From the NCBI RefSeq assembly GCF_003334335.1, contig NZ_QOWQ01000191.1: a stretch of DNA of 420 nt; one strand, 5' to 3'. The DNA is from Escherichia coli (GTDB taxonomy: Bacteria; Pseudomonadota; Gammaproteobacteria; Enterobacterales; Enterobacteriaceae). Each line of letters opens with the position of its first letter. Within the stretch, counting starts at the first letter, position 1. The notes under the pieces were generated by a model, which worked only from the letters and a program-made list of their open reading frames with translations, was not told the origin of the DNA and ran no database searches. The position numbers and the translations under genes are program-made. Shown piece after piece: positions 1-420 of the stretch.

Positions 1-420
1 ACAACGGATTTATCAGCAACGGAAATGGCCTGGAAGCTGTGGGAGCTTATGGGGGAGGTGTATTCGAACCGCTGGACTCAGAAGAACGGGGCCGCACCTT
101 CGAAGCTCTGGATTGCCCAGATTGGCACGATGACTGAACAGCAAATCCGGCTGGTCTGCCGTCAGTGCATGGACCGCTGCCGGGCGGGTGAAACGTGGCC
201 CCCAGACCTGGCTGAGTTTGTTGCACTGATTTCGGAGAGTGGGGCAAATCCATTTGGTCTTACGGTGGATGCAGTGATGGAAGAGTACCGGCGCTGGCGC
301 AATGAATCCTGGCGATACGACGGGAGTGATAAATACCCGTGGCCACAGCCTGTGCTGTACCACATCTGCCTCGAAATGCGTACCAGAGGGATTGAGCGCC
401 AGATGACGCAGGGTGAGTTA
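1..420 (+). CDS. P: Partial CDS (both ends outside the window) for a lambda P-family phage replication protein, the DnaB helicase loader; corresponds roughly to lambda P residues 38-174
   Basis: Frame 1 (codons starting at 1, 4, 7 ...) reads through all 140 codons with no stop: TTDLSATEMAWKLWELMGEVYSNRWTQKNGAAPSKLWIAQIGTMTEQQIRLVCRQCMDRCRAGETWPPDLAEFVALISESGANPFGLTVDAVMEEYRRWRNESWRYDGSDKYPWPQPVLYHICLEMRTRGIERQMTQGEL. Frames 2 and 3 both hit stops (tga near 131-135). Against lambda P as I recall it, the blocks match in order with conserved spacing: TMTEQQ vs TTMEQV; PPDLAEFVAL vs PSPGQFVAW; then 36 vs 37 residues to D-KYPW vs ESYPW; then PQPVLYHICLEMRTRGIERQMTQGEL vs KSNAHYWLVTNLYQNMRANALTDAEL (26 vs 26 residues). 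Comparison is from memory, not a database search. Confidence 0.85.

Follow-up and report, generated by a model that had tools for sequence, protein, structure and literature searches.

A probable out-of-frame overlap between an initiator gene and a lambda P-family helicase-loader gene in a lambdoid prophage of Escherichia coli

The window analyzed here, a stretch of 420 nucleotides of E. coli DNA, is explained with high confidence as ordinary phage replication machinery, namely the middle of a lambda-P-family helicase-loader gene in a lambdoid prophage; this confidence applies to the explanation as a whole, including the overlap described below. The start of the loader gene (P) very probably lies inside the preceding initiator gene, at position 19929 of L001 (the 40 kb around an identical copy of the window in E. 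coli JE86-ST05, in which the window is 20001–20420; L264 is the next 30 kb). As the P ATG is inside the initiator gene and P is +1 relative to it, window bases 1–137 would code for two proteins. Both the start of P and the translation of the initiator tail are conclusions that we infer from conservation alone. The long overlap appears to be conserved throughout this P subfamily, Vibrio phages as well as E. coli included. The module itself is known, but its initiator/loader junction is unusual and apparently undescribed. A search of the open-access literature retrieved no description of a long initiator/P overlap, which is weak evidence given that scope.

The loader gene and its prophage

Comparison of the three forward frames identified frame 1 as the only one open across all 420 bases of the window. 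It corresponds to codons 25–164 of 220 of a P-like helicase-loader gene (window 1–420, plus strand), the ORF of which runs from an ATG 72 nt 5' of the window to a stop 171 nt 3' of it (L001 19929–20591). Matches to the Pfam family Phage_lambda_P (PF06992; E = 2.2e-9 for the 140-residue window translation, 1.9e-15 for the full ORF) and to PHROG 109, 'P-like helicase loader' (E = 1.1e-41 and 2.4e-62, respectively), place the product in the lambda P family, and bear out the first-pass annotation, which had taken the window for an internal fragment of such a gene. The PHROG 109 match of the 220-residue ORF starts at ORF residue 14 and spans profile positions 18–236 of 236. A profile search of the PDB with the P-like protein retrieved lambda P (8v9t) at E = 1e-5; the lambda P sequences of 8v9t/8v9s match, and the HMM alignment reaches lambda P residues 81–202. 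No NCBIfam model matches the P-like protein. The protein is predicted to bind host DnaB and to deliver it to the initiator–origin complex.

The earlier estimate of approximately 60 codons downstream of the window is close to the 56 codons plus stop that were found. Upstream, 24 codons were found rather than the 35–40 anticipated; that figure followed from lambda P numbering, the P-like protein being approximately 12 residues shorter at its N-terminus. The window DNA is 100% identical in four complete E. coli chromosomes. Of 5426 complete E. coli genomes, 1246 have a copy of at least 80% identity, nearly always on the chromosome; 13 deposited phage genomes, which belong to the Rac-SA53 and PPompW types, have one at approximately 90%.

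The AF2 model of the P-like protein (mean pLDDT 71) comprises a disordered N-terminus (residues 1–27, pLDDT below 50), a helix at residues 25–45 (pLDDT approximately 86) and a confident helical domain at residues 28–107, which has its counterpart in lambda P domain II–III. The top Foldseek matches of the model are the lambda P chains of the DnaB complex 9oa1 (probability 1.00, approximately 200 columns), and the crystal structure of lambda P domain III (8v9s) superposes on it with a TM score of 0.80 and an rmsd of 2.4 Å. The model shows every element of the lambda P fold: the N-terminal lasso, which is disordered, the pair of helical domains, and the helix at the C-terminus. This agrees with the published layout of lambda P, in which domain I (residues 1–29) is an intrinsically disordered N-terminal lasso that precedes two compact domains (PMC12661323). 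On the plus strand of the window, the last eight codons of the P leader (window 1–24, residues 25–32) are poorly conserved and predicted to be disordered. The counterpart of domain III, the part of lambda P responsible for DnaB binding in lambda, occupies window 250–420 (P residues approximately 108–164, limits from PMC12661323) and continues past the window.

The flanks were read in the four identical E. coli chromosomes and in other hits of at least 99% identity, which serve here as proxies for the source contig. In JE86-ST05, the 5' part consists of the chromosomal gene yccA, an integrase gene, an excisionase-like DUF4224 gene, an exonuclease gene and dicB. The immunity region has a leftward repressor-like gene, a rightward Cro/YdaS-like gene and a CII/YdaT-like gene, assignments (repressor, Cro-like and CII-like) that are supported by PHROG matches. 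The CII/YdaT-like gene is followed by the gene for a 347-residue initiator and then by the P-like gene. Located 3' of P are a DUF1627 gene (with a weak Ren-like hit), nin-like small genes, hokD, a DUF968 gene and RusA. The late region contains, in this order, Q, a methyltransferase gene, three tRNAs, and the genes for holin, lysozyme and spanin, and the structural part has terminase, portal, lambda-like head and tail genes, lom and tail fibres. The 3' border of the prophage is formed by tRNA-Ser (serT), after which chromosomal hyaA follows. A perfect direct repeat of 65 bp, representing the 3' part of tRNA-Ser (serT), is present beside the integrase gene (L001 11724–11788) and in serT (L264 21650–21714); these att copies are 50,284 bp apart and thereby bound the prophage between yccA and hyaA. 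The early region is the same in two further near-identical copies and in phage Rac-SA53.

The element therefore follows the canonical order of a lambdoid prophage, with an integrase and att repeats, an immunity region, Q, a lysis cassette, and head and tail genes like those of lambda. The first-pass annotation had predicted a lambdoid replication module from the window, and every item of context that it named could be located beside the identical and near-identical copies: repressor and cro-type genes (repressor, Cro/YdaS-like and CII/YdaT-like), nin-region genes downstream of P (the DUF1627 gene with its weak Ren-like hit, nin-like genes, RusA and Q), and an integrase with an attachment site (the 65-bp repeat at tRNA-Ser, delimiting a 50.3-kb element). 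The flanks carry phage hallmarks and an initiator gene does lie upstream, so that neither of the findings that would have spoken against a prophage module was made.

Several other features were observed in this region. The three tRNA genes (Ile, Arg and Arg; L001 29322–29573) are located 3' of Q and the DNA methyltransferase gene, before the lysis genes. A palindrome with a perfect 16-bp stem (TACCCATAGGTATTTA...TAAATACCTATGGGTA, L001 17742–17778) and T-rich tails on both sides sits between a DUF1391 gene and the repressor-like gene, and looks like a bidirectional terminator. Terminator-like sites numbered 8, with 2.9 expected. A scan for sigma-70-like promoters gave counts not above those in shuffled sequence; a divergent pair of such promoters was seen between the repressor and the cro-like gene. 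No RNA family was returned for the region by Rfam at E ≤ 1.

The initiator gene and its overlap with P

The initiator CDS (L001 19100–20137), annotated in RefSeq as 'DnaT-like ssDNA-binding domain-containing protein', encodes 347 amino acids and ends at window position 137. The only Pfam domain in it is the DnaT domain PF17948 (residues 203–268, E = 1.8e-16). The O-type N- and C-terminal domains of the lambda O family are absent, and PHROG places the protein in other families, of the 'replication initiation protein' and 'primosomal protein' kinds. An assignment as DnaT itself (NCBIfam equivalog NF002770) was rejected, as the protein scores 93.4 bits where the cut-off is 201, and matches over residues 196–270 only; the initiator has the DnaT-like domain in common with DnaT, yet is not DnaT.

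Within the initiator gene we identified 11 GTCAC(G) repeats on one strand with a spacing of 10–11 bp (background 0.89 per kb). They form two clusters, 229 bp apart, of six (L001 19228–19284, 717–773 nt 5' of the window) and five repeats (L001 19509–19554, 447–492 nt 5' of the window), and translate in the initiator frame to recurring V-T / S-R motifs. A low-GC stretch of 40 bp (GC 0.375, L001 19550–19589) follows the second cluster. In having putative iterons inside the initiator gene and an AT-rich stretch after them, the gene is functionally laid out like lambda O. Of the O-like initiator with iterons and an AT-rich region that had been expected upstream, the gene, the iterons and the low-GC stretch are thus in place, but homology to lambda O is not. 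Beyond the iterons and the low-GC stretch lies a GC palindrome, CGCGCATGCGCGCG (L001 19597–19610). In a simple count of 7-mers in relatives, clear repeats were found only in the initiator types L001, L005, L120, L262 and L007.

The initiator is composed of a variable N-terminal domain and a DnaT-like domain. For comparison, 263 related loci were gathered from genomes and IMG/VR, with some contigs included twice, and 30 non-redundant representatives, with P identities below 85%, were taken as lineages. Among these 30 lineages, at least eight unrelated initiator N-terminal domains are joined to one common C-terminal module, which consists of the DnaT-like domain, a linker that contains the ribosome-binding site and ATG of P, a helix (RAVQEIRAAREQWER) and the tail. 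A single pair of loci illustrates the mosaicism: L008 (strain NCTC9112, 6127–7137) and L001 (19100–20137) have windows that are 99.3% identical and initiators with different N-terminal halves, DUF1376 in one and the MANAWLRLWHD type in the other, and the mosaic joint lies within the initiator gene, 5' of the DnaT-like domain.

The P ATG is situated 209 nt before the initiator stop and is preceded by AAGGGGG at a spacing of 6 nt. In the window, the 3' end of the initiator gene takes up positions 1–137 (plus strand, frame 3), with 44 full codons at 3–134 (NGFISNGNGLEAVGAYGGGVFEPLDSEERGRTFEALDCPDWHDD) and a TGA stop at 135–137 that is formed across the P codons for Thr69 and Glu70 (ACT GAA). The encoded tail is glycine- and acid-rich, with stretches such as GVFEPLDSEER and TFEALDCPDWHDD. 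The first-pass annotation had considered the window ordinary and had expected anything unusual in the flanks. The former holds for the machinery, but the reading of window bases 1–137 in two frames would place the unusual feature partly within the window itself.

The arrangement is the same throughout the related loci. The initiator is in frame P+2 in 263 of 263, and its stop falls 191–239 nt past the P ATG in 257 of 263. The P ATG is present in 30/30 lineages, against a retention of 0.42 expected from the initiator residues alone. The Shine-Dalgarno sequence is kept likewise, with G at −10 in 29/30 and at −9 in 27/30 lineages and GGAGG or GAGGT in approximately 28/30, at a place where the initiator protein is poorly conserved. 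From this ATG the P frame is open in all 30 lineages (21.3 expected). The initiator stop is found at P column 70/71 in 19/30 lineages and at column 78 in 8/30; L004 (Symbiopectobacterium) is an exception, with an earlier stop and an overlap of only 113 nt. Three Vibrio phage lineages, with approximately 27% P identity, have the same frame relation, an overlap of approximately 190–212 nt and initiator tails (such as ..EERGGSFIDLDNGDWSSK*) similar to the one described here. A 4-nt ATGA junction was found in lambda, HK225 (phi80-type), Tyrion and a phiV10-like phage, and no overlap of the two genes in Pantoea phage PdC23. The RNA structure at the P start is not unusual (z = +0.74), and the Shine-Dalgarno sequence is unpaired.

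In two IMG/VR loci (L070 2707–3160 and L260 2314–3013), the junction is broken and P can be read no earlier than from residue ~80 or ~70; there is an N in L260 as well, and both are likely degraded prophages or sequence errors. An antisense ORF of 116 codons with a GTG start (window 13–363, minus strand) was discarded, since all three antisense frames are interrupted by stops in 27/30 lineages; the ORF arises as a side effect of coding-strand composition.

The pattern of substitution differs along the overlap. In close relatives, the fraction of variable sites is 0.57 at position 3 of initiator (O) codons in the O-only region and 0.61 at position 3 of P codons in the P-only region, and within the overlap it is 0.03, 0.24 and 0.38 at P positions 1, 2 and 3. 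The initiator has a pN/pS of 0.26 over P residues 1–32, where P has 0.63. In the second half of the overlap (P residues 33–70; window 25–137, plus strand), P is strongly constrained, with a pN/pS of 0.05, while the initiator reaches 3.5; the control value for the initiator frame, taken where that same frame is non-coding, is 2.8. Pairwise amino-acid identities among distant lineages follow this division: across P residues 2–32 they are 0.19 for P, 0.18 for the control frame and 0.32 for the initiator, and in the second half 0.58 for P, 0.35 for the initiator and 0.37 for the control frame. We also calculated how often a frame would be open in the second half when the P protein is held fixed and synonymous codons are redrawn. 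The initiator frame is open in 29/30 lineages versus 6.4 expected, a comparison in which shared ancestry overstates the independence of the lineages, and the control frame in 0/30.

Dual coding is thus indicated by two open frames, an independent conserved start and a substitution pattern unlike that of a single coding frame. Purifying selection on the amino acids of both products was not found throughout the overlap; instead, the constraint is partitioned. The part of the initiator tail inside the window appears to be kept free of stops without amino-acid constraint of its own, and may have no sequence-specific function.

Alternative readings of the junction

The overlap could tentatively be regarded as a neutral historical accident, in which the initiator stop was lost, the start of P moved upstream, and the tail is translated while its sequence and length are irrelevant. 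Loss of a stop and shift of a start are recognized as routes to overlapping genes (PMC2268670). In agreement with such an origin, the initiator frame in the window evolves as non-coding sequence does (pN/pS 3.5 vs. 2.8, identity 0.35 vs. 0.37), the tail motifs LD.EERG and D..DW coincide with the invariant W..KNG and WIAQIG codons of P, and the L004 lineage makes do with a shortened tail. The open frame, retained far beyond expectation with P fixed (29/30 vs. 6.4; control 0/30), argues against it, as do the stop at column 70/71 or 78 in 27/30 lineages and the persistence of the arrangement from E. coli to Vibrio phages, while sister P subfamilies keep a 4-nt junction.

The extent of the overlap depends on where P starts. 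Public gene calls for P fall into three length classes, of 153, ~180 and 216–223 residues. The upstream ATG at L001 19929 is favored by conservation of the protein 5' of Met41 and Met68, by the structure model, and by the lack of any other conserved in-frame start; Met33 of the E. coli sequence, for instance, is absent from most relatives. It is quite unlikely that P instead starts at Met41 (window 49–51, plus strand), which would give approximately 180 residues and an 89-nt overlap and leave the upstream ATG unused. This codon is the start of the ~180-aa annotations of relatives (forms of 179–181 aa are annotated at NCBI in Salmonella, Citrobacter, Klebsiella and others), Met41 is nearly invariant, and GGGAG occurs 3 nt 5' of it. 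A spacing of 3 nt, however, is too short for a typical Shine-Dalgarno sequence, and Met41 lies inside a conserved helix, in the middle of it in a confident part of the model. Moreover, W38 and the AW.LWE motif, both 5' of Met41, are conserved as far as the Vibrio phages, and the upstream ATG is present in 30/30 lineages with a well-spaced Shine-Dalgarno sequence and a P frame that stays open behind it (30/30 vs. 21.3 expected).

The RefSeq/PGAP start of 'replication protein P' is at the internal Met68 (window 130–132, plus strand; CDS L001 20130–20591), and implies a P of 153 residues, an 8-nt overlap and an untranslated frame 1 upstream. An ATG does exist there and PGAP annotates it in thousands of genomes, but we consider this start highly improbable: P-family homology, invariant residues and purifying selection extend approximately 100 nt 5' of window 130, as seen in the profile match from ORF residue 14, the tblastn matches to Vibrio phages from residue 34, the invariant residues W38, W49, K52, N53, G54, P57 and W61 5' of Met68, the pN/pS of 0.05 in the P frame, and the modeled helical domain (28–107) that resembles lambda P domain II–III.

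The likewise highly improbable reading that the overlap serves programmed +1 ribosomal frameshifting, giving an initiator–P fusion beside or instead of free P, fits the +1 position of P at every locus, the matching of both proteins to the 482-position profile PHROG 15931 and the existence of database proteins with both domains (P0106), but is opposed by the conserved ATG and Shine-Dalgarno sequence that favor independent initiation, by the count of in-frame fusions (0/263 loci), by P0106 and P0032 being deletion chimeras that join unrelated positions, by the Asp codon GAC before the TGA, which by eye would not re-pair in the +1 frame, and by the unremarkable RNA structure around the P start.

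In P0106 a DUF1376 initiator is joined to P at residue ~101, in P0032 the downstream DUF1627 protein is joined to P at residue ~76, and P0006 is a P with an internal deletion; these three probably reflect decaying prophage copies or assembly errors. PHROG 15931 ('unknown function') is matched by the initiator at positions 1–347 and by P at 279–482, and looks like a chimeric family that was assembled over the overlap region.

The overlap seems to mislead gene annotation systematically, with one gene or the other being mis-called. Where RefSeq calls the initiator, P is shortened to 153 or ~180 aa. Records that call a full-length P often have no initiator gene call at all, and uncalled initiator ORFs of ~340–390 codons were observed 5' of full-length P (212–223 aa) at L002 2139–3215, L003 2187–3215, L005 2037–3224 and L006 2061–3221. 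In the Vibrio phages, the loaders are annotated as truncated 'hypothetical proteins' (L007 3232–3558, L271 2232–2558, L269 2070–2522 and L270 2013–2534); their full ORFs, of 210–220 aa, start approximately 110 nt before the conserved block, within the O-like gene. The long overlap thus leads pipelines to shorten P to 153 or 180 residues or to drop the initiator gene, and as a result thousands of loader entries are without their first folded domain, and an initiator seems to be missing from some phage genomes.

Proposed working of the module and comparison with known systems

By analogy with lambda, the initiator would bind the phased GTCAC iterons in its own gene, approximately 450–770 bp 5' of the window, and open the adjacent low-GC stretch. 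The P-like protein would then capture host DnaB with its central and C-terminal domains and deliver it to the initiator–origin complex. In the first ~95 nt of the overlap, the C-terminal helix of the initiator (RAVQEIRAAREQWER) is the conserved product, and the disordered leader of P, comparable to lambda P domain I, is free to evolve; over the final ~113 nt, all inside the window, the first folded domain of P is conserved and the initiator tail rides along. The initiator C-terminus and P move as one unit, to which no fewer than eight unrelated N-terminal domains, presumably origin-binding, have been joined. Since they share nucleotides, they must be inherited together, which we suggest keeps their interacting surfaces matched while the origin specificity is swapped.

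It is possible, though doubtful, that the overlap is an adaptive device, either as a recombination-proof unit of the P-contacting initiator C-terminus and the loader N-terminus, as a control of the initiator-to-loader ratio, or as both. If so, any origin-binding domain could be swapped onto an unsplittable initiator–P unit, ribosomes reading the initiator tail across the P start may set the ratio of the two proteins, and the acidic glycine-rich tail could be a flexible element for partner binding. As a module, this is textbook biology, carried by roughly one in four complete E. coli genomes. Its junction matters in practice for gene annotation; in biological terms it is a clean and widely conserved case of partitioned constraint in overlapping genes, and it marks the unit that lambdoid phages exchange when swapping origin specificity.

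The module resembles the lambda O–P region (NC_001416) in having a CII-like gene, an initiator with internal iterons, a P loader and ren/nin genes, and the fold and domain order of P agree with those of lambda P, although the two P proteins are only approximately 16–20% identical. It differs in that the initiator lacks the lambda-O domain and has the Pfam DnaT domain only, in the 11 short GTCAC repeats in two clusters as opposed to four 18-bp iterons in lambda, and in the 209-nt out-of-frame overlap as opposed to 4 nt.

The Rac-SA53/PPompW-type prophages (KU052037, LC5678xx) have the same module and junction at approximately 90% nucleotide identity, recorded as a 'ydaU/primosomal protein I' gene followed by a 'ydaV/replication protein' gene. 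The N-terminal halves of their initiators differ from the one studied here, residues ~148–347 alone matching, and the records use the truncated 153-aa model of P. The phiV10/epsilon15/Tyrion-type modules also combine an initiator with a DnaT-like domain ('primosomal protein I') with a P-family loader, but have a 4-nt ATGA junction instead of the long overlap, and their P is longer (261 aa) and only approximately 25% identical.

An initiator with a DnaT C-terminal motif next to a P-family loader is annotated in many phages and has already been described as DopC/DopE, a domesticated O/P pair of Cellvibrionales and Oceanospirillales (PMC5509034). There, too, a protein with an HTH and the DnaT C-terminal motif is encoded directly 5' of a PF06992 protein; unlike the genes analyzed here, DopC/DopE are chromosomal and outside prophages, with no iterons reported (PMC5509034). 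The junction also occurs in the Vibrio phages D77, K248, D68 and 1.214.O, annotated as 'O-like plus hypothetical', which have an overlap of ~190–212 nt with the initiator in frame P+2. They differ in a P of only approximately 27% identity and in the annotation of the loader as a truncated hypothetical protein. These Vibrio phage loaders are possibly related to the VdhL loaders (PMC11087808).
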